Positions 1 to 18,433 of a stretch of DNA of 64,000 nucleotides are shown here, in pieces (the first letter of the stretch is position 1; the number at the start of each line of letters is the position of its first letter). The notes beneath the pieces were generated by a model, which worked only from the letters and a program-made list of their open reading frames with translations, was not told the origin of the DNA and made no database searches. The stretch is taken from NCBI GenBank assembly GCA_000018565.1, contig CP000875.1, positions 441,199 through 505,198 of the forward strand, in the 5' to 3' direction. Source of the DNA: Herpetosiphon aurantiacus DSM 785 (GTDB lineage: Bacteria; Chloroflexota; Chloroflexia; Chloroflexales; Herpetosiphonaceae). Position numbers and translations under genes: made by a program.

Positions 1-585
1 ACGACCATCGACCCAAACAGGTTGGGCAGTACATGACGCAACAAAATCGCCAGCGGTTTTACGCCAATTGCCTGCGCACCTTCGATGTACGGCATTGCTA
101 ATTCTTTGAGAATCAAGGCGCGATACATGCGGGCATACCACGTCCAGTTGGTCAAAATCAGCGCCAACAATAAATTGCTAAACGAACGCGACAGGATTGC
201 GCTCAAGGCGAGGGCTAGTAACACTGGTGGAATTGCTTGGAAGGTTTCGGTAATCCGACTCAGCAAATAATCGAGCCAACGCGGCCCCACGGCACAGCAT
301 GCCCCCAATACTAAGCCCAAACAGCTTGTGCCAATGCAGACGAAGCCTGCTCCAAACAACGACCAACGCCCGCCAATCAACATTCGGGCGAGCACATCAC
401 GGCCAAATTGATCGCTGCCAAGGGGATGGCTCAACGATGGCGGGGCTAAACGCTGCCCAATATTCTGCGCCAGCGGATCAACCTGCCAGAGCCATGGGCC
501 AACGATCACCGCTATCAGCATAAACAACAATCCGCCAGCGGCAAATTTGCCGCTGCGGCTTAGTTGTGGCTTGGCACGTTGCTCG
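1..585 (-). CDS. ABC transporter permease, DppC/OppC-like. Partial: C-terminus lies beyond the window start.
   Basis: Manual reverse-strand translation of about 100-260 gives RWLDYLLSRITETFQAIPPVLLALALSAILSRSFSNLLLALILTNWTWYA, the conserved OppC/DppC core. It lies directly downstream of a DppB-like gene on the same strand. Confidence 0.7.
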
Positions 586-591
586 GGCTGC

Positions 592-1542
592 TCAATTATT
601 GGCGTTTTGGCGGAGCCGTGGGTCAAGCGCTGCCATGCCGAGGTCAGCGCACCAGTTAGCGATAACATAAATTCCCCCTGCGATCAAGACTGACAAGCCC
701 AAAACTGGCATATCGCCGACCAAGGCTGCCTCAACCGCCATCCGCCCAACCCCAGGATAGGCAAATACTGTTTCAATAATTACCGTGCCAGTTAGCAAAA
801 AGGCCAATTCTAGGCTGATTGGGGTGATCAAACTGGCCGCAATGTTGGGAAGCGCATGCCCAAAGAGCAAACCATATTCGGAGCGCCCTTTGGCTCGAGC
901 CGTCACGATATACTGTTGATTTAGCACGTCGAGGGTGGTTGCGCGTACCAAACGTGAGGTTAGCGCTATATTCGGCAAGGCTAAAACGATGGCTGGCAGC
1001 AGCATGCCTTTAAATGTGGCGCTGCCGAGGGCTGGTAACCAACGCAATTTGGCCGCAAACACCAAAATCAACACCAGCGCAATCCAAAAGCCAGGAATTG
1101 CCGCGCCAATCACGGCCAAAAATTGCGCCGCATGATCCAACAAACTATGGCGCTTGATCGCGCTGATCAATCCCAAAGGAATGGCAATGCTCAGCGAAAC
1201 TGTTAGCACCAAGCCCGCCATCAGTAAGGTGGCGGGCAACCGTTCGCGATACATCGACCAAACTGGTTTGCCCGAACGATAGCTGACCCCAAAATCGCCC
1301 TGCACCACCGCGCCAAGCCAGCTGACATATTGGCTGAGCAGCGGACGATCAAGCCCTAGCTCACGTCGTTTGGCTGCAACAGCTTCGGCGGGTGGTGCAT
1401 CAAGGCCGCTGGCGCTCAACAACATTCGCGCTGGATCACCTGGAGCCATATGGATGATCAGAAATGCCAGCATGCTGACCATCCATAAGACCATTAGCCC
1501 ACTGAGCAAGCGCCCCGCAGATTGCCGCAATAGCGTGCTCAT
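592..1542 (-). CDS. ABC transporter permease, DppB/OppB-like
   Basis: 316 aa polytopic protein. The N-terminus MLAFLIIHMAPGDPARMLL is typical of OppB/DppB. Its start overlaps the upstream binding-protein gene by 4 bp. Confidence 0.85.
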   Translation of the reverse strand: MSTLLRQSAGRLLSGLMVLWMVSMLAFLIIHMAPGDPARMLLSASGLDAPPAEAVAAKRRELGLDRPLLSQYVSWLGAVVQGDFGVSYRSGKPVWSMYRERLPATLLMAGLVLTVSLSIAIPLGLISAIKRHSLLDHAAQFLAVIGAAIPGFWIALVLILVFAAKLRWLPALGSATFKGMLLPAIVLALPNIALTSRLVRATTLDVLNQQYIVTARAKGRSEYGLLFGHALPNIAASLITPISLELAFLLTGTVIIETVFAYPGVGRMAVEAALVGDMPVLGLSVLIAGGIYVIANWCADLGMAALDPRLRQNANN

Positions 1543-3068
1543 TGATTGAGTTTCAATTCCTTGGTAATCAAATAGACATCGTTGGGATTGGGCACATAGC
1601 CACTGATGCTGCCCTTGCGATAGGCGCTGATCAGTGGTGGACTGGCCAAATAAAGATTGGTTGGATCGTTTTTGACTTCGGTTTGAATCCGTTTGGCAAT
1701 CGCAATGCGTTTGATTGGGTCTTGCTCAGCGCGGAGTTCAGCGAAGGCGCTTTCAATTGCTGGATTCTTATAGCCAGCATAATTGTAGGCTGCGTCTTCA
1801 ACCAAGGTGATGCCGACTGTATATTGGGGGTCGCCCGAGGTGCCAATCGAATACATGCTGGCTTGGAAATTGCCTTTTTCCAGCACTTCGCCAATATCAG
1901 CAACTTCGTTGACTTCAACTTTGATGCCCAAGGTTTGGAGTTGAGCTTGAATCGCAATTGCCATCAAGGTTAATTCGGCGCGGCCAGGGTAGCTATGCAA
2001 CGTAAAGGCCAGCGGCTGACCATCTTTGCTGCGCATACCATCGCTGCCCACCACCCAACCCGCTTGATCAAGCAAACTCGCCGCTTGGGCTGGGTCAAAA
2101 ATTTGGGCCTCAACTAGTTCAATTCCGACTGTTGCAGGATAAAGATTGGTAGCAACTGCGCCTTGTCCATCAAGCGTTGCTTGCAACAAGGCTTGACGCT
2201 CAATCGCGAGGGCCATGGCTTGGCGCACCAAGCGATCATCAAATGGTGGATGGGCACTATCCAACATAACATAATGCATGCGAGTGCCAGCCACACTCTG
2301 AATCTCAATATCGGCGGGCAATCCACGGGCAATATCGGGCGAAACATTGGTCAGGAGATCCAAATCGCCGCTTTGTAAGGCCAAGGCACGGGCGTTAGCA
2401 TCGGGAATTTTCTTGACGCTGATTTTTTGCAGCCCTGCCTGACCATCCCAATAATTAGCAAAGCGTTCGAGTACCAACTCTTGATCTTTTTCAAGGCTGA
2501 TTGGCTGATACATGCCCGTCAAAATCGAAATGCCATTGACCGCAGGTTTATGAATAACGAAATTCCAATTGGCCAGGCTGTAGGGAATGCTGCCCTCGGC
2601 TTGGCTGGTGGTTAACGTCAGGGTGTAATCATCAACTACATTAACGTTGGTATCGGCAGGAATGAAATTTTTGGCTCCACTGAGGTTTTGCCAACTGCTA
2701 TTGAATGAATTAAGCACATCGCTGGCCTTGAGTTCGCTGCCATCGTGAAAGCGAATGCCTTGGCGCAACTTGATTTGCCAAGTCGTTGGATCAAGCGCGG
2801 TAACGTTTTCAGCTAACCATGGTTCAAGCTGATTGCTGGGCGTAAAACGCATCAAGGTTTCGCCAGCGCCGTAGGTTAGCATATTGTAGCCATTCGAACC
2901 TTGGGCTACATCGAGGCTGGTTGGCAAATTGATGCCTGTGCCGATGCGTAATTCTCCATTTGGATCGCTGGTTGAAGTCGTTGCTTGAGGTGTTTCGCTG
3001 GCTGTGCCACATGCCACCAGCATTTGTATCATGAGAATCAGCCCTAAAAGCTGAGTTAAACGCCGCAT
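1539..3068 (-). CDS. ABC transporter substrate-binding lipoprotein, family 5 (peptide/nickel)
   Basis: 509 aa with an N-terminal signal peptide carrying the lipobox LVAC-G. The size and sequence character match SBP_bac_5, and it sits in an operon with DppB/C-like permeases. Confidence 0.85.
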   Translation of the reverse strand: MRRLTQLLGLILMIQMLVACGTASETPQATTSTSDPNGELRIGTGINLPTSLDVAQGSNGYNMLTYGAGETLMRFTPSNQLEPWLAENVTALDPTTWQIKLRQGIRFHDGSELKASDVLNSFNSSWQNLSGAKNFIPADTNVNVVDDYTLTLTTSQAEGSIPYSLANWNFVIHKPAVNGISILTGMYQPISLEKDQELVLERFANYWDGQAGLQKISVKKIPDANARALALQSGDLDLLTNVSPDIARGLPADIEIQSVAGTRMHYVMLDSAHPPFDDRLVRQAMALAIERQALLQATLDGQGAVATNLYPATVGIELVEAQIFDPAQAASLLDQAGWVVGSDGMRSKDGQPLAFTLHSYPGRAELTLMAIAIQAQLQTLGIKVEVNEVADIGEVLEKGNFQASMYSIGTSGDPQYTVGITLVEDAAYNYAGYKNPAIESAFAELRAEQDPIKRIAIAKRIQTEVKNDPTNLYLASPPLISAYRKGSISGYVPNPNDVYLITKELKLNQ

Positions 3069-3143
3069 TGCTAGACCTTTCTATCTAATTATTGATATCA
3101 AGTATCAACAAAGCGGCAATTGTAGACGGCTGATCGCTGTTTG

Positions 3144-3902
3144 TCAAATAATTGTCGAGCCACCCCAGAGCTTGATCAGCTGTTGATGATAGCGTTTGAG
3201 CAAGGCTTGCAACCGTTTTGGGGCATAGCGTTGCAAGCGAAATAGCCAGCGATCACTGGCACTCAGCACAATTTCGGTTTCGCCCGCCAAATAGCGCTGG
3301 ATAATCTGTTCGCCAACTTTATTGGCCTCAGCGAGTGGGAAGCGTTGGCCAGTTTGTTGGGCCATGGCTGTGGTCATGGCGGTTTTGGTGGCTGGGGGGT
3401 AGACCCGCACAATCTTGATCGTGGTTTCGGCTGTCAGTGCCAAGCCCCAAGCCTCAAGCGCAGCTTTGCTCAGGCTATACAAGCTGGCTCCAGGCATGGC
3501 CACGCGGCTAACCGTGCTGCCAACAATCAATACTGTTTTAGGCAGTAGTTGTCGGGTGAGCCAAATTGGGTGCAGCAAATTGGCATTGAGGGTTGCAAGG
3601 ATGGCTGATTCTGGTAGCTGATCAAACGCACCGCCCGCTAGCACTGCCGCATTGTGAATCAATAGATCGAGCTGAACATAACGTTGGGTGATTTGAGCAG
3701 CGAGGGCGGCAACCGCTTCATGATCGCTCAAATCACAGACGATCGGCCAAGCTTGACCACCAAGTTGGGTAACCAAGCTGGCCGTTTGCAGCAGTGGTTC
3801 GCGGCGGCGACCAACTAAAATAATGGTTGCGCCACGTTTGGCCAAGGCCAAGGCCATGGCCTGACCAATGCCCGTGCCTGCCCCAGTAATCAACCCAACC
3901 AT
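3144..3902 (-). CDS. SDR-family oxidoreductase
   Basis: 252 aa with the Rossmann glycine motif TGAGTGIG at the N-terminus, typical of short-chain dehydrogenases. Confidence 0.8.
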   Translation of the reverse strand: MVGLITGAGTGIGQAMALALAKRGATIILVGRRREPLLQTASLVTQLGGQAWPIVCDLSDHEAVAALAAQITQRYVQLDLLIHNAAVLAGGAFDQLPESAILATLNANLLHPIWLTRQLLPKTVLIVGSTVSRVAMPGASLYSLSKAALEAWGLALTAETTIKIVRVYPPATKTAMTTAMAQQTGQRFPLAEANKVGEQIIQRYLAGETEIVLSASDRWLFRLQRYAPKRLQALLKRYHQQLIKLWGGSTII

Positions 3903-3915
3903 CGCGATTTCCTAG

Positions 3916-4902
3916 TTAGTAAATCAACGCCACAGCACCCAAGGTAATTCCAGCGCCAGAGCCAAGCAGCACCAAGCGGTTGCCACGCTGAATTCGGCCA
4001 GCCGCAACCGCTTCAGCCAAGGCTAAGGGCACGGATACCGAAACGCAATTGCCTCGGGTAGCGAGATTGCTAATTACTTGATCGGGCTGAAAGCCCAAGC
4101 GTGCTTGCACTTGCTCGATCGCATGGCGGTTGGCTTGATGGGGAATAACTGCATCAATTTCACTATTTTGCCAACCTAGCTCAGCCAAAAATCGTTCAAC
4201 AAACTGCTGCATTTCGCGCAAGACAAAGCGAAACGCCAACGGCCCCTGCATCATAAACCAATTCATGTCGGGCGTGGTATCTGCCGCGTTGGGATGCTGG
4301 GCCGTGCCGCCGCCGCGCACCTGAATCAAATCGCTGCCATTGCTCCAGGTGGCAAATTGGCTATGTTGCAGGCTGCTGCTGCCATCGCCGCGCTCCAACA
4401 CGACTGCCGCTGCTGCATCGCCAAATAGCGCTGTCGATTCCCATTCATGTGGATTGAGCGAAACTGAAGCCCGTTCGCTGCTGACTAACAGCACTCGTTG
4501 ATACACGCCACTATTAATTAATGGCGCTAACAATTGCAATGCCAGCATAAAACTCATACAGGTTGCATTCAAATCGAAGCAGGCGCTACGGCCCACTGGT
4601 GCTTGCAAGGCGTTTTGCAATAAGGCCGCCGTGCATGGGATGGCTTGATGCATTCCAGCCGAAGCCACCACGATTAAATCGATGCTATCAAGCGCATAAT
4701 TGGCGTTGGCTAGTGCTTGCTGGGCGGCTTGGGTGGCCATGGTCAAGGCAGTTTCAGCTCCAGCGTAACGGCGCTCACGAATGCCCGTGATTCGCTCAAT
4801 TAAGCCTGGATCAACGCCAAAGCGCTCGGCTAGCTCGCTGGTGGTAACAATGGTGGCTGGTAAGTACGCGCCGATTCCGGCGATGCGCAGAGGAAACTGC
4901 AT
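3916..4902 (-). CDS. 3-oxoacyl-ACP synthase III family (FabH / OleA-like condensing enzyme)
   Basis: 328 aa. The N-terminal region RIAGIGAYLP...SELAERFGVD...ITGIRERRY and active-site-Cys context SACFDLNATC match the KAS III thiolase fold. Confidence 0.8.
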   Translation of the reverse strand: MQFPLRIAGIGAYLPATIVTTSELAERFGVDPGLIERITGIRERRYAGAETALTMATQAAQQALANANYALDSIDLIVVASAGMHQAIPCTAALLQNALQAPVGRSACFDLNATCMSFMLALQLLAPLINSGVYQRVLLVSSERASVSLNPHEWESTALFGDAAAAVVLERGDGSSSLQHSQFATWSNGSDLIQVRGGGTAQHPNAADTTPDMNWFMMQGPLAFRFVLREMQQFVERFLAELGWQNSEIDAVIPHQANRHAIEQVQARLGFQPDQVISNLATRGNCVSVSVPLALAEAVAAGRIQRGNRLVLLGSGAGITLGAVALIY

Positions 4903-4921
4903 AACACTACCTCGTGTAATT

Positions 4922-6175
4922 TCAAAATCGTTGTTTTAACCAAGCTATGGCCTTGGTTACGCCTTGCTCTTGGGCTAATTGGGTCGCAAGTTGTTGCGCC
5001 GCCGCCTGATAATCATCGCGCTCAATCAAGCTACACAGCAGAGTAGCGAGCTGTGCAACTTGCAATTGGTTGGCTGGCACAGGCGCTGGCCCCGCTTTGA
5101 GATCATACACCCGCTGGCCCCAAAAATATTGGTCGCCCAAAAATGGTGTGACCAAGGCGGGCTTGCCTGCACCTAAGGCTGTAGCGGTTACGCCCGCCCC
5201 GCCATGATGCACAACTGCCGCTACCCGCTCAAATAACCAAGCATACGCTAGGCCATTGATCGCTAAACAGTTGGCTGGCAACTTGCCCTGAGCTAAATCG
5301 CCCCAGCCTTGGTTGATGATCATGCGTACTTTGGCTTTTTGGCTGGCGGTAATTAGCAATTGGCTTAATTGATTGCCGCGCTTTTGACCATGCAACATGC
5401 TGCCAAAACTAATGGTGATTGGCGCTGGGCCTGCTGCCAGAAATTGCTGTAATGCCGTTGGTGCTTGCCAATCTGCCGCTGGGGGCAGTGACCAATAGCC
5501 AGTGATCGCGCCATCGTCAAACCAAGTTGCTGGCGGCGGAGCAACCAACGCGCTATAGGCATACAAGGTTGGTGGCTGAAAATTGCGACTCCGTTGCCAA
5601 AGCTGGCCAATGCTTAGGCTTGGGCGTTGCAAAATCTGCTGCCGTGCTTGATTGAAGGCCATGCGCAAGACTTGCCATTGCAATTGCTCGGCCACGCGAT
5701 AGCTCATGCGGCGATAACTGGCCCAAGCCAGTTGCGGCGCAAAATGATGGGCGGTTTGGCTGCTAGCAGCATAAGGGTGCAGGTGTACCAACACTACGGG
5801 AATGTGCAAATGCTCGGCTAGATGCAGCGCAGGCCACATCCCCAAACTGGAAACGATCAAACAATCGGCAGTTTGGCAGGCCGCTAGTGCATCAGCGATT
5901 AATTGACGAATAATCGGTGGTGTTTGTTGAAGAAATTGTTTGATGATTGCGCTGCGACCTGCTGCCAAGCCCGCCGCCATTTGTTCAGGGTTGAGCAAGG
6001 CCGAAATTGAGCCAACCAACGGGGCAAAACGGCAGCCATAGCTTTCAACCAAGCTACGATAATCATGAGCTGCGGCGATAACGACCTGATGACCCTCAGT
6101 TTGCAACCCAAGCGCCAAGGCGATAAACGGCTGCACATCGCCGCGCGAACCAAGCGCCAAGATACAATAGTTCAT
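4922..6175 (-). CDS. GT1-family glycosyltransferase (UDP-glycosyltransferase/MGT-like)
   Basis: 417 aa. The N-terminus LGSRGDVQPFIALALGL and C-terminal HHGGAGVTATALGAGKP...GDQ match the GT-B GT1 donor-binding signature. Confidence 0.8.
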   Translation of the reverse strand: MNYCILALGSRGDVQPFIALALGLQTEGHQVVIAAAHDYRSLVESYGCRFAPLVGSISALLNPEQMAAGLAAGRSAIIKQFLQQTPPIIRQLIADALAACQTADCLIVSSLGMWPALHLAEHLHIPVVLVHLHPYAASSQTAHHFAPQLAWASYRRMSYRVAEQLQWQVLRMAFNQARQQILQRPSLSIGQLWQRSRNFQPPTLYAYSALVAPPPATWFDDGAITGYWSLPPAADWQAPTALQQFLAAGPAPITISFGSMLHGQKRGNQLSQLLITASQKAKVRMIINQGWGDLAQGKLPANCLAINGLAYAWLFERVAAVVHHGGAGVTATALGAGKPALVTPFLGDQYFWGQRVYDLKAGPAPVPANQLQVAQLATLLCSLIERDDYQAAAQQLATQLAQEQGVTKAIAWLKQRF

Positions 6176-7449
6176 TGGCGAATTACCCGACGACGTTTAT
6201 TGACCAAGCCATACTCGATTGGCGCAAAACCAATGCTCAGTTGGCAATTCGTACAACCATAATCCGCCAGATGCAGTTTAATTTGCTGCTCAACTGCTGC
6301 TCCAACCGTCGCCGTATCAGCCGCCGTCGCCAGCATCAAGGTGATCGTAAGTTGATCGTCGTGGGTTTGGGTGATTTGATATTCTTGGATGGCCGAATGC
6401 GCCAAGAGTATAGCGCGGCGCAAACTATCAGGAAAAATCGCTTGGCGCTGGCCGTGGCAGGTAAAATAACAGAGATCATCACGCCGCCCCTCGATTTGCT
6501 CAATCACCGCAAAGGCGCTGCCACAGCGACACGGCTGCGCACTCAACCGCAACACATCATTTAAACGATAGCGAATAATCGGCTGAGTGCGTCGCCATAA
6601 ATCGGTGATATACGGCGTAACGCGGCCTTGCCCTAAATCCTCAAAATCAACCGCCACAATATCTTCTTGGAGGTGCAAATTGCCGTGAGCGCACGAAATA
6701 CCCAGTAAACCTTCGGTTGCTTGGTAGATTTGCTCAATTGGAATGCCAAAGTAGTTGCTGAGTTGTTGCTGTTCGTCGCTAGCCAAGGCATCGGCGACAC
6801 TAATAATTCGTTCAGGCCGATGAGTCAATTGGCCGTTTTGGGCCGCTGCTAGCAATTGCAGCAACAAGGCTGGTGGAGCTACGATAATCGTCGGTCGATA
6901 GTCGTTGAGCACTTGAATGTGGCCTGCTAAGGCTTGGGTCAAGTCGAAATAGCGAAATTGAATCAGCCGCCCGCCCAGCTGTTGATAGAGATTGCTGTTG
7001 GCGCGTAAAAAAAAGGCGATTTTGGTGGGCTTGATTTGGTGTAACGTGCGACCTAAAATCGTGCCCGCCCACAGCAATTGCTCGGCGGCACTCACCAAAA
7101 ATAAGCCGCGATGCCCCGATGTGCCCGACGAAAGCCCGACCGTCAGATTGCCCAAACGTGGCACAAAATCACGTTGTTGCTCGGCTTGTTGGGCCAAATC
7201 GAAGGCCGCTGCGGTTGGCACTTGCAAGGTGTTGAATTCACGAAAATTGGCCATCATCAAGCCTTTATCGACGGCTGGCAAATTGCGCCAATCATTAAGG
7301 TCATGGCCCTGCCAATGCTGGCGATAGAAGGCTGAATGTTGGGCAACCCAAGCAATCAATTGGCGTGCTTTGGTAGCTTGAAAGGCTGGTAAGCGCTCGG
7401 CATTCAGCCGTTGCCACCGCCAACGTGCCTGCCCAAAATGGTAGCCCAT
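6172..7449 (-). CDS. Adenylate-forming enzyme, F390-synthetase/PaaK-like (ANL superfamily)
   Basis: The ORF track extends the start to 7656, but that would overlap the upstream gene. Met70 at 7449 lies 21 bp after the upstream stop. The sequence has the SSGTSG P-loop-like motif and matches the coenzyme F390 synthetase-like family. Confidence 0.6.
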   Translation of the reverse strand: MGYHFGQARWRWQRLNAERLPAFQATKARQLIAWVAQHSAFYRQHWQGHDLNDWRNLPAVDKGLMMANFREFNTLQVPTAAAFDLAQQAEQQRDFVPRLGNLTVGLSSGTSGHRGLFLVSAAEQLLWAGTILGRTLHQIKPTKIAFFLRANSNLYQQLGGRLIQFRYFDLTQALAGHIQVLNDYRPTIIVAPPALLLQLLAAAQNGQLTHRPERIISVADALASDEQQQLSNYFGIPIEQIYQATEGLLGISCAHGNLHLQEDIVAVDFEDLGQGRVTPYITDLWRRTQPIIRYRLNDVLRLSAQPCRCGSAFAVIEQIEGRRDDLCYFTCHGQRQAIFPDSLRRAILLAHSAIQEYQITQTHDDQLTITLMLATAADTATVGAAVEQQIKLHLADYGCTNCQLSIGFAPIEYGLVNKRRRVIRQ

Positions 7450-7469
7450 AGTCAACACATCGCTGATGC

Positions 7470-8285
7470 TCACGCCGTCGCAACCTCGTTGGCATAGATT
7501 TCTGGGCAATGGCAGGGCACAATCAACACCTCGGGGTAGGCTTGGGCGAAGGCGCTCAAACGGGCCAACGTTGTGGCCATGGCCTTGGCATCGTCGATCA
7601 TAAAATAGATGATTGGGTGGGGCAGCACTTGCCCGCGAATTGCCCGCGAATGCCAAGCGCCATCTGCTGCCAACAAGATTGGGCGCGAATTGGCGATATA
7701 CATACCGATTTGGCCTCGTGCATGGCCAGGCAATTCGACCAGCCGTAACAAGCCATCGCCAAATAAATCGTGGGTGTTGCCCAAAGCAAATAGTGGTTGG
7801 TCGCGAAATTCATGAATTAAATGCAGCCGTTGATGCCAACCTTGGGGAAACAAATGGGGAATAATCCCCCGTCGCAAGGCGTTAATCCCTTGAACTTGGC
7901 TGACCAATTCAAACGCCGTGGCTGACATGTAAATTTGGGCTTGCGGAAAATCGGCCAAAGCGGCTACATGGTCGGCGTGAGCATGCGAAAGCACAATCCA
8001 ACCAATATCTGCTGCGCTCAAGCCATACTGTGGTAATTGATTGACTACTTCTAATTCAGGCGATAATTGCAAGGGCGTGGCCTGGCGATAGAGCGACCAC
8101 GGCAACTGTTGGGTTGCGCTGATCATCGCTTGGCTATACCCGACATCAAACAAGCCCCAGCCATGTTTGGGATGCTCAATCAAGGCCACAAGCGCATGGC
8201 AATCGAGCATGCGGCGACTGCCATCGCGTAGCACATGAAATTCGGGCACGCGGCAAATTCCAGTATCCAGCAATCTGACTTGCAT
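7470..8285 (-). CDS. MBL-fold metallo-hydrolase
   Basis: 271 aa containing the HxHxDH motif LSHAHADHVAAL. Confidence 0.8.
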   Translation of the reverse strand: MQVRLLDTGICRVPEFHVLRDGSRRMLDCHALVALIEHPKHGWGLFDVGYSQAMISATQQLPWSLYRQATPLQLSPELEVVNQLPQYGLSAADIGWIVLSHAHADHVAALADFPQAQIYMSATAFELVSQVQGINALRRGIIPHLFPQGWHQRLHLIHEFRDQPLFALGNTHDLFGDGLLRLVELPGHARGQIGMYIANSRPILLAADGAWHSRAIRGQVLPHPIIYFMIDDAKAMATTLARLSAFAQAYPEVLIVPCHCPEIYANEVATA

Positions 8286-8288
8286 TAG

Positions 8289-9269
8289 TTAAACCCCCTT
8301 GGTTGGTTGTTTAAGCGCGGCGATGGTGCGTTGAATCCCCGTTTCAAGGCTGATCAATGGCTGATAACCCAAATCGTGTTGGGCTGCAACCAAGGAGTGA
8401 GTTTGGCTGCGGGCCAGCGCCAAGACGCTATAACGCGTTAGTAATGGCTCACGCCGTGTTAGCAAGCTGATACTTTCCATGATTCGTGCCACGGCTAAGG
8501 CTAGCGACAAGGGCATTGGCCGCAACTGGCTAGGCAAACCCAACTCAGCCAGTACCCGCCGAATCACCGCCCAGAGCTGGGGATGTTCGCCATTGGTGAT
8601 TGTATAACACTTGCCAAGCGCTGCTGGAGCCGTTAACGCCAACTCAATTGCATGCACTACATTGGCAACATAGGTCAAATCAACCAAATTTTGTCCGTTG
8701 CCAAATTGACGTAAGCGGCCAGCGCGGGCTGCGGCGATAATTCGTGGCAACAAGGCTTGGTCGCCCTCGCCAAAAATTGCCTTAGGCCGCAAAATCACGC
8801 TGGGCGTGGAATGCTTGAGCACCAATTGTTCTGCTTGCTGTTTGCTGGCCGAATACAGCGAAATAGGCCGCGCTGGATAGGGCATTGTATCGAGCAAATC
8901 AAACTGATCGCGGCCATTGGAAAGAACGCTTGGTGATGAAATAAACACCAAGCGTCCGACCTTCTGTGCAGCACAACCAGCTAGTACATTGGCTGTACCA
9001 TCAACGTTAATGGTTTGAAAATCGCTGCGACTGCCCCAAGGAGCCGAAAGTGCCGCGCTATGCACTACCACATCGCAACTAGCACAGGCCGCAATCAACG
9101 TAGCGCGATCGCGCAGATCGGCCTTGATTGGCTGAATGCCAGCGGCTAGTAGTTGTGGAACATGCTCCCAGCGGCGGCCCAAACCCAGCACCGTATGCCC
9201 AGCTTTTTGCAGAGCCAACGCGGTGTGCGCACCCAAAAAACCAGTAGCGCCTGTGACTAAGATTTGCAT
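8289..9269 (-). CDS. NAD-dependent epimerase/dehydratase family (3beta-HSD/OleD-like extended SDR)
   Basis: 326 aa with the N-terminal ILVTGATGFLGAH Rossmann motif. Confidence 0.8.
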   Translation of the reverse strand: MQILVTGATGFLGAHTALALQKAGHTVLGLGRRWEHVPQLLAAGIQPIKADLRDRATLIAACASCDVVVHSAALSAPWGSRSDFQTINVDGTANVLAGCAAQKVGRLVFISSPSVLSNGRDQFDLLDTMPYPARPISLYSASKQQAEQLVLKHSTPSVILRPKAIFGEGDQALLPRIIAAARAGRLRQFGNGQNLVDLTYVANVVHAIELALTAPAALGKCYTITNGEHPQLWAVIRRVLAELGLPSQLRPMPLSLALAVARIMESISLLTRREPLLTRYSVLALARSQTHSLVAAQHDLGYQPLISLETGIQRTIAALKQPTKGV

Positions 9270-9275
9270 TCTAGC

Positions 9276-9896
9276 CTACGTTCCAAATTGGCGGTCGCCA
9301 GCATCGCCCAAGCCTGGCACGATATAGCCTTGCTCGTTCAATCGCTCGTCAAGCGCCGCCAAATGAATCTCCACGTCGGGGTGAGCAGTTTGCAAGCGTT
9401 CTACCCCTTCAGGTGCGGCGATTAACCCCAAGAATTTAATTTTAGCTGCGCCCCAAGCCTTCAAAATATCGACCGCAGCAACAGCCGAGCCGCCAGTTGC
9501 CAACATGGGGTCGAGAATCAAACAGACATCAATATCTGGCTGAGCTGGCAATTTGTTGTAATAGGTGACTGGCTCAAGCGTGTTGTGGTCGCGATAGAGA
9601 CCCAAATGCCATACATGGGCGGTTGGCAAAAGGTCGATAACTGGCTCGACCATGCCCAAGCCAGCGCGTAAAATCGGAATCAAGCCGATGCGAGCACCGA
9701 TGGCATGACCTTGCATGGTTGAGAGCGGTGTTTGAATTGTATAGGGCGCGAGTGGCATATCTGCCGTTGCTTCATAGACCAAAAATTGCGAAATTTCCCG
9801 CACCAATTCGCGAAATTTCTTTGGTTCGCTTTCTACCCGGCGTAGTAAAGCCAATTTATGTAATACCAATGGATGTGACGATACATGCAAGCCCAT
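9276..9896 (-). CDS. upp: Uracil phosphoribosyltransferase
   Basis: 206 aa with full-length similarity to UPRTase, including the PRPP-binding loop DPMLATGGS and C-terminal [15 protein letters not shown]. Confidence 0.9.
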
Positions 9897-9946
9897 AACA
9901 CAACCTCATACTAAAAAACAGCAGATCGTGGTTATTGTATCCCATC

Positions 9947-9976
9947 TTGACAAACCCCTCTTAGGCGTGGTTAAAT
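9947..9976 (+). promoter_or_regulatory. Candidate sigma70-like promoter (TTGACA-N18-TTAAAT) upstream of the DUF4388 gene, implying a roughly 280-nt leader
   Basis: TTGACA at 9947-9952 and TTAAAT at 9971-9976. A second TTGACA lies at 10193-10198. Confidence 0.3.
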
Positions 9977-10257
9977 CAACCCGTCACATTGCACCTTCAC
10001 TCCTCTCTGTGGAAACGTCTTCTAGTACTTCCATCCCAACCCTAGCCTTACCCCTGCATAGCAATAAAGAGTATTGGCATATCATAGACGGATACATCCA
10101 ATTGCGACCATAATAGGGTTGTCATTTTTCTAACGTCGATGCTTGCAATAAGGCCCATTAGAAAATATTTTTTGTTCCATTTATATCAAATATTGACATT
10201 ATTTGGACAAAACCTCGACAACATCGACTAGTTGCACTGTACACAAAGGAGACGGCT

Positions 10258-10956
10258 ATGGCGCTCGAAGGTAATTTTGCTGATATGCCATTAATTGACT
10301 TGATGCATGTATTTCATCATGGGCGCAAAACCGGTCGTCTTTTGATTGCGAATGCTCCATTCAAAGCGATGTTGTGGTTTTTCGATGGTGCGATCATCAA
10401 TGCAGGGGTGGTAACCCAAAATGCCCACGAACGAGTTGCGTGTGGCGAACAAGCCGTGTTTGATATGTTGGCCTGGGATGATGCCCAATTTGTCTTTTTG
10501 CCACCCAACCCACAAGAGACGGTGTCGGTGCAAATTCAACATTCGATCGATTGGCTGATTATCGAAGGCTTGCGCCGTCGTGATCAACCGCAACGGTTGG
10601 CAGGTACAACCAAACTCCAACCAACTTCACGCCTACGCTTAGTGCCAATGTTGCGGCAAGCCAGCGATATTACCCTAACCATCGAAGATTGGCGCATTTT
10701 GAGCCAGTTGGTGCAAGAATTAAGTGTGGCCGAACTCGTCGAAGCCACAGGCTGGAATTACGATCAAACCCTCAAAGTGCTGCATCGTTTGATCGCCTTG
10801 AATTTGGTGGAGGTGTGTAGCGAGATTGTTGTTTCTCAGCGTTCGCTTAGCCCAGTTTTGATGGCGCCTAACCACGAACATATGGTTGAGAATCGGGTGC
10901 GTGGGTTGGTTCAAGCAATCAAAGCGCGGCTGCGTCGCACCAGCGCCAGTGCGTAG
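10258..10956 (+). CDS. DUF4388-domain protein
   Basis: 232 aa. The N-terminal LIDLMHVFHHGRKTGRLLI...FFDGAIINAG...GEQAVFDMLAWDDAQFVF pattern is characteristic of DUF4388. An AGGAGA RBS precedes it, and it is the first gene of a four-gene + strand module. Confidence 0.6.
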   Translation: MALEGNFADMPLIDLMHVFHHGRKTGRLLIANAPFKAMLWFFDGAIINAGVVTQNAHERVACGEQAVFDMLAWDDAQFVFLPPNPQETVSVQIQHSIDWLIIEGLRRRDQPQRLAGTTKLQPTSRLRLVPMLRQASDITLTIEDWRILSQLVQELSVAELVEATGWNYDQTLKVLHRLIALNLVEVCSEIVVSQRSLSPVLMAPNHEHMVENRVRGLVQAIKARLRRTSASA

Positions 10957-10958
10957 GA

Positions 10959-11540
10959 GTGACAATGGTCAATTATAAAATTGTGATCACGGGAGCATAC
11001 GCGGCGGGCAAATCGCAATTTATTCGTACCGTCAGCGAAATCGATGTGGTCGATACCGATGTTCCCGTGACCCATGCCGAGGAGAAAGAACTCAAACACC
11101 ATACAACCGTTGGTTTGGATTTCGGCACCTTGAGCATTGATGCCGAACAACGCTTGCTCTTATTTGGCACGCCAGGTCAAGAACGTTTTGATTTTATGTG
11201 GGAAATTTTAGCCGAAGGTTGTTTGGGCTATATTGTTTTAGTTGATAGTTGCCGACCTGCCCATTTTAACGAGACGATTGTGGTGTTGGAACGTTTTGCG
11301 GAGATGACCCCTGTGCCATTTGTGGTTGCCGCCACAAAACAAGATTTACCTGGGGCATTGCCGCCAATGTATATTCGCCGCCGCTTGGGACTACCAACCG
11401 ATATTCCGATCCTCGCTTGCGTTGCCACCGATTACCCCTCAGTGAGCGATGTGATCAGTACCTTGCTTGATCGAATCGACGTTTTAGCCCAAGATTCATC
11501 CTCCTCCTCTGAAAATAACAAGGAGCATTCTCATGGCTAG
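10959..11540 (+). CDS. Ras-like small GTPase (MglA/CvnD-like)
   Basis: 193 aa with the P-loop GAYAAGKS, switch II FGTPGQERF and the NKxD-like TKQD. It starts 2 bp after the upstream stop. Confidence 0.7.
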   Translation: MTMVNYKIVITGAYAAGKSQFIRTVSEIDVVDTDVPVTHAEEKELKHHTTVGLDFGTLSIDAEQRLLLFGTPGQERFDFMWEILAEGCLGYIVLVDSCRPAHFNETIVVLERFAEMTPVPFVVAATKQDLPGALPPMYIRRRLGLPTDIPILACVATDYPSVSDVISTLLDRIDVLAQDSSSSSENNKEHSHG

Positions 11541-11910
11541 TCGTTCGGAACAAATTAATACTATTTTAGGCCAACTTGTCACAAATAACGGTAATGATAT
11601 TAACGGGGCTGCATTGATTAGCTCCGATGGGATTTTAATTGGCTCACGGATGTCGGCGGATGTGAATGCCGACCGCATGGGCGCAATTGCCGCAACCATG
11701 ATGGGGGTTACCACCCGCGTGGTCAACGATTTGAAAATTGGTAAAGCCAATGAGGCAATTGTGAATGCCGAAAGTGGCTATCTCTTGGTTATGCCGGTGG
11801 CCGCTCAGATGATTCTAGCAATCATTCTGCGCCAACACGCCAATTTGGGCATGATTCGGATTGAAGCTCGTGAAACAGGTCGTGCCATCGCCGAACTGAT
11901 GACCGCTTAA
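11533..11910 (+). CDS. Roadblock/LC7-domain protein (MglB/CvnB-like)
   Basis: 125 aa with a Roadblock-type pattern (GAALISSDGILIGS...). It overlaps the GTPase gene by 8 bp. Confidence 0.7.
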   Translation: MASRSEQINTILGQLVTNNGNDINGAALISSDGILIGSRMSADVNADRMGAIAATMMGVTTRVVNDLKIGKANEAIVNAESGYLLVMPVAAQMILAIILRQHANLGMIRIEARETGRAIAELMTA

Positions 11911-11926
11911 TTCAAGGAGGTAGCTC

Positions 11927-12472
11927 ATGGCAGATCGTCAAAGTTGGAGCGTGAAGGGAACCGCAATTCTGACCGAGTTGGTAAAAATGATGGATGTTTC
12001 GGCTGCTGAATCGCAATTACTCGGCAGTTTGCACGATGGCGCTAAAGCACAAACCACCGCCTTCACCGATGCTTTTTACAAACGTTTGTTGGGCCACGCC
12101 GCCACTGCCGAATATCTCGATGGGGTGTCGGTCGAACGCTTAACGGGTATGCTTGGTATGTGGTTTAGTGATCTGTTTCGCGGCAATTATGATGAAGCCT
12201 ATGCTCAACAACGTTTGAAAATTGGCGAAATTCATGTGCGGATTGGCTTGCCTGTGCGTTATCCTTTGGCTATGCTCGATGTGATTATGCCATTTGGTGA
12301 GCAAGTTGCTGCCACCAGTAGCGACCCTGCCAAGGCTATAACGGCATTTCGCAAAGTATTAGCCCTCGATGTTGCCCTCTTTAATCAAGCCTACGAAGAT
12401 AATCAATTGTCGCACTTGGCCGATTTAGTCGGTGGTGAGCGCTTAGCCCGTTTGCTACTGGCTGGTCAATAA
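11927..12472 (+). CDS. Protoglobin / globin-coupled-sensor-type globin domain protein, stand-alone
   Basis: 181 aa matching the protoglobin pattern (FYKRLL...SDLFRGNYDEAYAQQRLKIGEIHVRIGLPVRY), with a candidate proximal His in GEIHVRIG. A GGAGG RBS precedes it. Confidence 0.6.
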   Translation: MADRQSWSVKGTAILTELVKMMDVSAAESQLLGSLHDGAKAQTTAFTDAFYKRLLGHAATAEYLDGVSVERLTGMLGMWFSDLFRGNYDEAYAQQRLKIGEIHVRIGLPVRYPLAMLDVIMPFGEQVAATSSDPAKAITAFRKVLALDVALFNQAYEDNQLSHLADLVGGERLARLLLAGQ

Positions 12473-17212: not shown

Positions 17213-18433
17213 ATGCCGTTTGAGTCGTTTCAAGATCTGATAACAATGCTGGTGGTTATTCTCGTGCTCCAAGTGAGCTTGGCATTGTTGTTAATTGGCG
17301 TGCGCAAATGGCGACCAACGCGCTATCAACGCTATCCGCGCATTAGCCTGCCACCAACCAGCGACGAGCGCCATCAATTTCAGTTGTATATGTCGGGCGA
17401 AGAGCTGTTTCCGGCCATGCTGCAAGCGATTGAATCGGCGCAGCGCTTGATTTTGCTCGAAACCTTTATTTTCAAAGGCGATGATTTAGGCCATAAATTT
17501 CGTGAAGCCTTATTGCGCAAAGCTCGCAGCGGCGTGGCCGTCTATGTGATTATCGATGGGTTTGCCAATTTGGTGGTCCCACGCAAATTCAAAAATTTTC
17601 CGCCGGAAATTCAACTGTTGAGCTACCCAGCTTTTCCGCGTTTATCGCAGATTTTCGATATTGGTTCGTATGCGCGTGACCATCGCAAACTGTTGGTCGT
17701 TGATAACGAAGTGGCCTTTATTGGGGGCTACAATTTGGGTGAATTGTATCGCACTGAGTGGCGCGATACTCATGTGCAGGTGCGTGGCCCGATTGTCAGC
17801 AATTTGGCCGAAATGTTTGCTTCGCAATGGAACCGTTATCGCCGCCGCCTAACGCGCTTGCACATCGACCTCGAGTTGGAATGGCAATCGACAGTGCGGG
17901 TACAGCGCAACGACGCTGGCCGCTTGGTTTTTCCAATTCGTTCGATGTATCTTGATGCAATTGAACGAGCTGAACGGTTTGTTTACATTAGCAACGCCTA
18001 TTTTATTCCCGATCGGGCGATTTTAGAGGCCTTGGTGCTGACCGCACGGCGCGGAGTTGATGTGCGCATTTTGGTTCCAGCTGAATCGAACCATGTGTTG
18101 GCCGATTGGCTGGCGCGGCATTATTTTGAATTTTGCCTGCGCCATGGGATTAAAATTTTTCTCTACGAAAATGCCATGATTCACGCCAAAACCGCTACGA
18201 TCGATGGAATTTGGTCAACGGTTGGCACGGCCAATCTTGATCGGCTGAGTTTAGCGGGCAACCATGAAATCAATCTAGAAATTTATAACGCCGCCTTTGC
18301 TGAACGGATGCAAGAAATTTTTGCCTGCGATATGGCTAATGCCCGTGAATTAACCTTGGCCGAATGGATTAAGCGCCCATGGTATACCAAGGCCGCCGAG
18401 TTGGTGCTCTCGCCATTATGGCCAATTTTGTAG
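17213..18433 (+). CDS. cls: Phospholipase D-family protein / cardiolipin synthase
   Basis: Two HKD motifs (HRKLLVVDNEVAFIGGYNLG and HAKTATIDGIWSTVGTANLD) and an N-terminal transmembrane helix. Confidence 0.85.
   Translation: MPFESFQDLITMLVVILVLQVSLALLLIGVRKWRPTRYQRYPRISLPPTSDERHQFQLYMSGEELFPAMLQAIESAQRLILLETFIFKGDDLGHKFREALLRKARSGVAVYVIIDGFANLVVPRKFKNFPPEIQLLSYPAFPRLSQIFDIGSYARDHRKLLVVDNEVAFIGGYNLGELYRTEWRDTHVQVRGPIVSNLAEMFASQWNRYRRRLTRLHIDLELEWQSTVRVQRNDAGRLVFPIRSMYLDAIERAERFVYISNAYFIPDRAILEALVLTARRGVDVRILVPAESNHVLADWLARHYFEFCLRHGIKIFLYENAMIHAKTATIDGIWSTVGTANLDRLSLAGNHEINLEIYNAAFAERMQEIFACDMANARELTLAEWIKRPWYTKAAELVLSPLWPIL

Follow-up and report, generated by a model that had tools for sequence, protein, structure and literature searches.

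A conserved operon of Herpetosiphon aurantiacus, built on a widespread four-gene cassette, as a candidate pathway for a glycosylated, hydroxylated lipid

At positions 3144–9269 of a 64,000-nucleotide stretch of the Herpetosiphon aurantiacus DSM 785 genome (hereafter, the window), we read from the sequence six intact, tightly packed, head-to-tail open reading frames (ORFs) on the minus strand. In the direction of transcription, they encode a reductase of the NAD-epimerase/3β-hydroxysteroid dehydrogenase type that resembles OleD (8289–9269, 326 amino acids), a metallo-β-lactamase (MBL)-fold metallo-hydrolase of a lactonase-like subfamily (7470–8285, 271 amino acids), an adenylate-forming ligase of the F390 synthetase-related family TIGR02304 (6172–7473, 433 amino acids, GTG start), a glycosyltransferase-family-1 (GT1) UDP-glycosyltransferase resembling sterol glucosyltransferases (4922–6175, 417 amino acids), a ketosynthase of the β-ketoacyl–acyl-carrier-protein synthase III (KAS III) type related to CorB and MxnB (3916–4902, 328 amino acids), and a classical short-chain dehydrogenase/reductase (SDR) oxidoreductase (3144–3902, 252 amino acids). 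Only 3 bp separate the MBL and reductase genes, 19 bp the KAS III and GT1 genes, and 13 bp the SDR and KAS III genes, and the two remaining junctions are 4-bp start/stop overlaps (ATGA for GT1/ligase and GTGA for ligase/MBL), in keeping with the contiguous run of genes with short gaps and overlaps that a first-pass annotation of this DNA had described. The domain assignments made in that annotation were borne out for all six proteins by Pfam and NCBIfam scans, and the catalytic motifs were intact in each. In pairwise comparisons with four other Herpetosiphon/Chloroflexia genomes, the ratio of nonsynonymous to synonymous substitution rates (dN/dS) was 0.08–0.17 for each of the six genes, all of which are under purifying selection. 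Automated ORF lists instead offer a 494-amino-acid ligase with a TTG start (6172–7656) that begins 183 bp inside the MBL gene and inflates the overlap of the two genes; we rejected this ORF and preferred the 433-amino-acid form because a GTG is read in the sequence at 7473 and the resulting protein is 100% identical to a Herpetosiphon database entry (P0001).

We scanned one genome per species using the ligase as query, which yielded 32 loci, then used tblastn with the window proteins, and added further carriers from a plasmid search and from annotated records. The six genes, together with the flanking upp and importer genes described below, were collinear in Herpetosiphon geysericola, H. llansteffanensis, H. 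giganteus, and one Chloroflexia metagenome-assembled genome (MAG), with 76–87% protein identity. More distant Chloroflexi contigs (51–56% identity) kept the same order, with reductase, MBL, and ligase followed by GT1, a cytochrome P450, or nothing, and then by KAS III and, in some, the SDR. The synteny expected from the first-pass annotation was therefore found, with one revision. The six genes do form a conserved operon in Herpetosiphon, but the unit that is widely conserved consists of only four of them, KAS III, reductase, MBL, and ligase, with GT1 and the SDR being accessories of the Chloroflexi variant. This four-gene core was syntenic in ~40 loci from at least five phyla (Chloroflexi, Actinobacteria, Firmicutes, Acidobacteria, and the Alpha-, Beta-, and Gammaproteobacteria). 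It was kept together in the Xanthomonadales (Frateuria, Dyella, Rhodanobacter, and Oleiagrimonas) and also found in Alphaproteobacteria, a Bryobacterales MAG, an Enterobacterales MAG, ten Nocardioides/Pimelobacter genomes, Bacillus mycoides, Paenibacillus, Pontibacillus, Paraburkholderia, Ketogulonicigenium, and Escherichia coli. Wherever both occurred, the MBL gene lay directly upstream of the ligase gene. No cassette locus contained fab, paa, ole, polyketide synthase (PKS), or carrier-protein genes (45 related loci in the case of fab).

Of 5426 complete E. coli genomes, 674 (~12%) carried the cassette between narI and the tyrTV tRNA genes, among them strains ABU 83972 and NRG 857C and uropathogenic isolates. 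In ABU 83972 (NC_017631.1, 1486371–1493252; our locus L036:3001–9882, also represented by L034), it forms a seven-gene island encoding KAS III, reductase, MBL, TIGR02304 ligase, a PAP2_3 protein, a fatty-acid hydroxylase, and a fatty-acid desaturase, all of them annotated in generic terms; in strain CFT073, tag c1693 is the PAP2 gene. Because the order of the core is kept across phyla, on plasmids, and in this E. coli accessory island, chance adjacency is incompatible with the data, and the six-gene arrangement is more than chance. In Xanthomonas, gumO (3-oxoacyl-ACP synthase) and gumP (metal-dependent hydrolase), with chd2 listed alongside them, lie downstream of the xanthan gum operon and have no demonstrated function, whether in making xanthan or otherwise (PMC2585010, PMC5554336). 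Judged by gene names and descriptions, gumO/chd2/gumP appears to be the same cassette, and the E. coli cassette MBL is itself named 'GumP-like' in UniRef. A full-text literature search on the cassette families returned no functional study, only the gumO/gumP papers.

The KAS III protein contains the Pfam domains ACP_syn_III and ACP_syn_III_C. Among NCBIfam models, it scored 300.7 bits with PRK07204 and 261.7 bits with PRK09352, a broad subfamily whose cut-off of 249 it passed, but it reached only 236.1 bits with TIGR00747 (fabH), below the cut-off of 292.1. When compared with all PDB sequences, it matched CorB (203 bits) and MxnB (200 bits) best, whereas FabH enzymes scored 100–164 bits (E. 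coli FabH, 133) and PqsD 86 bits, and the OleA structures of X. campestris (3row, 3s21/3s23, 4kti, and others) scored 71–76 bits in two fragments. Identity to CorB and MxnB was 35–36% over the full length (33–42% for cassette ketosynthases as a group), and cassette ketosynthases from different phyla were 35–47% identical to one another, a roughly similar span. The E. coli FabH in this identity matrix serves only as a rough outgroup, and the evidence concerning FabH is that of the PDB scores. The Cys-His-Asn triad aligned (C in NATCMSF, H in PHQAN, and N in GNCVS), and the motif N(A/S)(S/T)C(L/M)SF was common to all aligned cassette ketosynthases and to CorB and MxnB. Around the histidine, all aligned cassette ketosynthases had PHQ(A/P)S except one other and that of Herpetosiphon, whose HQAN is FabH-like and differs from the HQPS of CorB and MxnB. 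MxnB binds and condenses two long chains via two tunnels, like OleA, to which it is only 25% identical (PMC5724707). By these comparisons, the enzyme is a predicted member of the CorB/MxnB-related, chain-joining group and not a housekeeping FabH, a distinction on which the first-pass annotation had depended and which the absence of flanking fab genes also favors. The same comparisons did not support its likening of the ketosynthase to OleA, for which the relevant scores were 76 bits for OleA and ~200 for CorB and MxnB.

For the reductase, which contains the Pfam domains Epimerase and 3Beta_HSD, a GATGFLG NAD(P) motif, and a YSASK catalytic motif, the best curated match was OleD (2-alkyl-3-oxoalkanoate reductase; NF042422/NF042423), at 238.5 and 227.6 bits with a cut-off of 580. 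This match was full length (E 1e-70), and the next, to HpnA, scored 113 bits; the E. coli cassette reductase scored 146–154 bits with OleD. The best PDB match was NSDHL, sterol-4α-carboxylate 3-dehydrogenase. OleD and NSDHL both act on α-substituted β-keto or β-hydroxy carboxylates, and this substrate chemistry is the strongest hint of an α-branched product. The MBL protein (Pfam Lactamase_B) matched in NCBIfam the AttM-type N-acyl-homoserine-lactone (AHL) lactonase (70.9 bits, cut-off 390) and 4-pyridoxolactonase, and its PDB matches were AHL lactonases of the AttM/AiiA type, at E 1e-9 or weaker. Its metal ligands (H101, H103, D105, H106, H188, D208, and H259) were invariant in 13 cassette MBLs.

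The profile check proposed for the ligase in the first-pass annotation came out as expected: the protein scored 387.6 bits with TIGR02304 (cut-off 251.9), over profile positions 17–426 of 430, but only 37.8 bits with the phenylacetate–CoA ligase model for PaaK (TIGR02155, cut-off 646.3), and no paa genes were nearby. Its match to the AMP-binding family PF00501 was 30.1 bits over ~100 residues (165–265), its PDB matches were PaaK-like ligases at E 1e-10 or weaker, and it is remotely related to PaaK, DdaG, BagE, AjiA1, and true F390 synthetase. In the translation we read the motifs SSGTSG, YQATEG, and a C-terminal NKRRRV. Judged by its profile scores, the ligase is a bona fide TIGR02304 member, assigned to a PaaK-like branch of the ANL superfamily of adenylating enzymes other than that of OleC. 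At E ≤ 1e-30, the family as a whole falls into 480 clusters (50% identity). TIGR02304-type ligases also occurred without KAS III, reductase, or MBL in Suttonella ornithocola (L007:8477–10435) and on the Pseudomonas amygdali megaplasmid pMPPla107 (L035:8905–10203), each with a weak tblastn match to an ATP-grasp-like protein within 8 kb; these may represent a different use of the family.

The glycosyltransferase has a GT-B architecture, with Pfam Glyco_transf_28 at the N terminus followed by EryCIII-like_C. Its best PDB match was yeast sterol 3-β-glucosyltransferase (169 bits, residues 3–411), compared with 86 bits for GtfB and at most 86 bits for glycopeptide and macrolide glycosyltransferases, whereas its best NCBIfam matches were the antibiotic-modifying glycosyltransferases Rgt and MGT. 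A Chloroflexi MAG locus (L043) carries an orthologue with 42% identity in the same position. The SDR (Pfam adh_short and KR; motifs TGAGTGIG and YSLSK) matched only generic SDR models in NCBIfam, and homologues with 37–38% identity followed KAS III in L043 and in a second locus, L044.

Using a presence/absence matrix together with Pfam and NCBIfam scans, we sorted the cassettes by their accessory genes. Those of Proteobacteria, Acidobacteria, and Firmicutes (type A) carry an ATP-grasp protein (PRK06849) and a ~380-amino-acid Acetyltransf_6/GNAT-like protein, often with a Rieske oxygenase that matches SdmA and an XRE regulator, and in two loci a methyltransferase. Those of Chloroflexi and Nocardioides (type B) carry one or two GT21 and/or GT1 glycosyltransferases and sometimes a P450 and an SDR; the GT21 proteins belong to the ceramide-glucosyltransferase family, with HpnI as best match. 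The E. coli cassettes (type C) carry PAP2_3, a fatty-acid hydroxylase with OlsE as best match, and a fatty-acid desaturase; the PAP2_3 protein is sometimes annotated as inositol-phosphorylceramide (IPC) synthase, and one accessory is annotated 'sterol desaturase family'. The Ketogulonicigenium cassette (type D) carries a sulfotransferase and a TetR regulator. Glucosylceramide synthases make up family GT21, and IPC synthases are found within PAP2_3. The operon of Herpetosiphon belongs to type B, with GT1 taking the place of GT21. Far from being an oddity of its genus, it is the glycosyl form of an orphan four-gene lipid cassette that is widespread. In a natural fusion protein (P0194, 642 amino acids), a PAP2_3 membrane domain at the N terminus, with 41% identity to the PAP2 of the E. 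coli cassette, precedes a TIGR02304-type ligase at the C terminus, which ties the ligase, in Rosetta-stone fashion, to a membrane lipid-phosphate enzyme. In L043 (9001–16984), the order is ligase, GT1, KAS III, SDR, α/β-hydrolase, and two GT21 genes, and both the OleD-like reductase and the MBL are missing beside the ligase. This arrangement suggests that the SDR and α/β-hydrolase functionally replace reductase and MBL, which fits the assignment of ketoreduction and hydrolysis to the latter two. Taken together, the accessory patterns point to a lipid, a hydrophobic scaffold carrying at least one hydroxyl to which different lineages attach different head groups. The idea of a glycolipid, raised in the first-pass annotation, gains support both from the resemblance of GT1 to the sterol glucosyltransferase and from the GT21 genes in sister cassettes.

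We think it somewhat probable that this six-gene operon, which builds on the widespread four-gene cassette, is dedicated to the synthesis of a lipid-like metabolite that is hydroxylated and glycosylated. In such a pathway, KAS III would carry out a Claisen condensation of acyl thioesters from primary metabolism to give a β-keto product, which the OleD/NSDHL-like reductase would convert to a β-hydroxyl. The MBL would contribute a hydrolytic step, either thioester release or lactone opening, and the PaaK-like ligase would adenylate the carboxylate of a starter or product acid on the way to a thioester, ester, or lactone. GT1 would then place a sugar on the lipid hydroxyl, with the extra SDR providing a second redox step, and other lineages would use the same core with the head-group and tailoring enzymes swapped. 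As to the carbon skeleton, there is close to an even chance that KAS III joins two long chains to give a 2-alkyl-3-oxo acid, and the branched 2-alkyl-3-hydroxy product predicted in the first-pass annotation is plausible; a FabH-like extension of a starter acid by two carbons, yielding a linear skeleton, is a lesser but real possibility, and other chemistry is less probable still. A broader proposal, which we regard as unlikely though worth stating, is that the core is a widespread and so far unrecognized route to two-tailed, non-nitrogenous lipids resembling ceramides or mycolates (2-alkyl-3-hydroxy acids or 1,3-diols derived from them), with head groups and tail modifications that differ by bacterium. 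The CorB/MxnB-type ketosynthase would then join two fatty acyl chains and the OleD/NSDHL-type reductase would set the β-hydroxyl; head groups would be a sugar (GT1/GT21), a phospho-alcohol (PAP2_3, IPC-synthase family), sulfate, or amino acids, and the tails would be hydroxylated and desaturated. Such a proposal would cover extraintestinal and uropathogenic E. coli lineages as well as xanthomonads (gumO/chd2/gumP).

Several observations weigh against a dedicated glycolipid operon. CorB and MxnB, of the corallopyronin and myxopyronin pathways, are the closest solved homologues of the ketosynthase and have the triad and the NxxCxSF-type motif in common with it, but they use carrier-protein-bound β-keto polyketide chains from trans-acyltransferase PKSs and form an α-pyrone, and no PKS or carrier-protein gene was found in the Herpetosiphon locus or the related loci that could supply such substrates. 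The ATP-grasp and GNAT-like genes of many sister cassettes suggest amino-acid chemistry and not a plain lipid. The likeness of the MBL to lactonases is weak at 70.9 bits, and the ligase could instead form amides or esters in the manner of DdaG or AjiA1, both of which it matches weakly. Moreover, the case for a lipid leans in part on accessories of other lineages and not on Herpetosiphon itself, and family resemblance is the sole basis for the proposed sequence of steps and carbon-skeleton topology.

The first-pass annotation had likened the operon to OleABCD, and this likeness was borne out in part, OleD being the best curated match of the reductase. The two systems have four enzyme types in common (a thiolase-fold condensing enzyme, an OleD-family reductase, an ATP-dependent adenylating enzyme, and a hydrolase), and both lack an acyl carrier protein and take their substrates from fatty-acid metabolism. 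β-Lactone clusters for lipstatin and nocardiolactone are related to OleABCD. A true Ole-type pathway, in which head-to-head condensation and reduction would be followed by formation of a β-lactone by the ligase and then by its decarboxylation to an olefin, or would end with the lactone as product, with the MBL standing in for OleB, can thus appeal to a one-to-one match of enzyme types by function, to the OleD matches of both the Herpetosiphon and E. coli reductases, and to the position of KAS III within a clade that joins two chains (PMC5724707). At the level of individual families, however, the operon departed from OleABCD at all four positions: the OleA structures reached only 76 bits with KAS III; the reductase fell far under the OleD cut-off; the ligase is a PaaK-like TIGR02304 protein with a marginal AMP-binding match, whereas OleC is a classical ANL (AMP-binding, LACS-like) β-lactone synthetase; and OleB, an α/β-hydrolase, was missing from the operon and had an MBL-fold hydrolase in its place, which, if lactonase-like, would reverse β-lactone formation. 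An olefin would also offer no hydroxyl to the glycosyltransferases, PAP2_3, and sulfotransferase associated with the core, and because these accessory enzymes need a hydroxylated end product, a true olefin outcome is unlikely; we consider the Ole-type pathway as a whole improbable. Somewhat less so, though still doubtful, is a small diffusible lactone or α-pyrone that serves as signal or antibiotic, produced by a CorB/MxnB- or PpyS-like ketosynthase, processed by the MBL, and glycosylated for export or self-protection. The pyrone-forming homologues of KAS III, the resemblance of the MBL to AHL and γ-butyrolactone lactonases, the XRE and TetR regulators beside many proteobacterial cassettes, and the Rgt and MGT matches of GT1 all speak for such a product. 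Against it, most of the accessories are of a membrane-lipid type (GT21, PAP2_3, fatty-acid hydroxylase, and fatty-acid desaturase, together with the PAP2_3–ligase fusion), GT1 is much nearer the sterol glucosyltransferase than macrolide or glycopeptide glycosyltransferases, and no source of β-ketoacyl carrier-protein substrates is encoded. The pqsABCDE operon of Pseudomonas, which brings together a CoA ligase, FabH-like condensing enzymes, and the MBL-fold thioesterase PqsE, provides a precedent for release of a β-keto acid by an MBL, but differs in that PqsD scored only 86 bits against KAS III, PqsA is a classical ANL enzyme, and an OleD-like reductase is missing; PqsE was absent from the PDB matches of the MBL at E ≤ 0.01. 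Rhamnolipid, heterocyst-glycolipid, and glucosylceramide pathways, in which a GT1 or GT21 glycosylates the hydroxyl of a β-hydroxy, 1,3-diol, or ceramide-type lipid, are alike in the tailoring layer only, as their scaffold enzymes (RhlA, PKS, and serine palmitoyltransferase) are unrelated.

The remaining explanations have less still in their favor. Were the locus a catabolic or detoxifying cassette, the lactonase-like MBL would open a lactone or ester, the ligase would activate the acid for processing like that of β-oxidation, and GT1, with its matches to the resistance glycosyltransferases Rgt and MGT, would inactivate a xenobiotic. PaaK-type ligases are typically catabolic, but the TIGR02304 family is distinct from PaaK, KAS III enzymes condense and are not thiolytic, no acyl-CoA dehydrogenase, hydratase, or thiolase was present, and the accessories are anabolic lipid-tailoring enzymes, making this explanation very improbable. 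Modification of a polycyclic triterpenoid (sterol or hopanoid) at its C3 hydroxyl, by the 3β-HSD-type enzyme and the sterol-glucosyltransferase-type GT1, seems more improbable again. It would account for the matches of the reductase to NSDHL, HpnA, and SdmB, those of GT1 to sterol 3-β-glucosyltransferase and of its GT21 counterparts to HpnI, the Rieske accessory matching SdmA, and the 'sterol desaturase family' accessory of E. coli. However, every 'sterol' or 'hopanoid' match fell far under its cut-off, KAS III and the ligase have no role in triterpenoid pathways, cyclase and squalene genes were found neither in the examined regions of the window nor in the related loci, and the cassette is carried by Bacillus and by E. 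coli, the latter of which makes neither sterols nor hopanoids. There is next to no chance that the locus is a gathering of housekeeping and unrelated genes, with KAS III as the cell's FabH beside unrelated oxidoreductases and hydrolases. The PRK09352 score, the FabH-like HQAN motif, and a housekeeping upp gene probably within the same transcription unit could be read that way, but KAS III fell short of the fabH cut-off, fab genes were found neither in the surrounding window nor in the 45 related loci, and the four-gene order is kept across phyla, on plasmids, and in the E. coli accessory island; the E. coli that carry the cassette presumably keep their normal fabH too.

If the operon does direct synthesis of a glycosylated lipid, it would represent, in glycolipid form, an orphan lipid pathway that hundreds of bacterial lineages possess. 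The carriers include roughly one eighth of complete E. coli genomes, xanthomonads that are pathogens of plants, and plasmids of the Bacillus cereus group. A function would then be assigned to the TIGR02304 ligases and to the MBL constantly paired with them, and a new class of envelope lipid whose head groups can be exchanged would be of interest for the biology of membranes, for interactions with hosts, and for the discovery of natural products. Because E. coli has a copy of the cassette, the question is testable in a tractable organism.

On its upstream side, the operon is adjoined by a seventh gene on the same strand, upp (9276–9896, minus strand; uracil phosphoribosyltransferase, TIGR01091 at 256.7 bits, above cut-off), which lies 6 bp from the reductase gene and is probably in the same transcript as the cassette. 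It is 98–99% identical in other Herpetosiphon genomes and adjoins the cassette only in this genus. We rejected upp as a pathway gene in view of this genus-specific linkage and of conservation at a housekeeping level (dN/dS 0.02). On the downstream side, the next genes on the same strand encode an ABC importer, with an Opp5A/NikA-like substrate-binding protein (1539–3068) and a permease (592–1542). The first-pass annotation had noted this neighbor correctly, but it looks like a separate unit. A consensus scan found a sigma-70-like promoter match on the minus strand (3147→3119; TTGACA-17-TACAAT, 11/12) that overlaps the SDR stop codon and precedes the start of the importer's substrate-binding-protein gene, and this promoter-like site likely marks the 3′ functional boundary of the operon. 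Because of this site and because importer and operon are linked only within Herpetosiphon, we rejected the importer as part of the system. A scan of window positions 1–12000 matched no Rfam RNA family at E ≤ 0.1, and therefore no riboswitch or leader is recognized there. About 8 kb from the operon, a plus-strand gene (17213–18433) encodes a protein with two phospholipase D motifs, of the cardiolipin-synthase/phospholipase D type, that was unlinked to the operon in other genomes as far as checked. Nearer to the operon and divergent from it (10258–12472, plus strand) are genes for a DUF4388 protein, a small Ras/MglA-like GTPase, a Roadblock/LC7 (MglB-like) protein, and a protoglobin, a set resembling a GTPase module of the polarity or motility type linked with a haem sensor.

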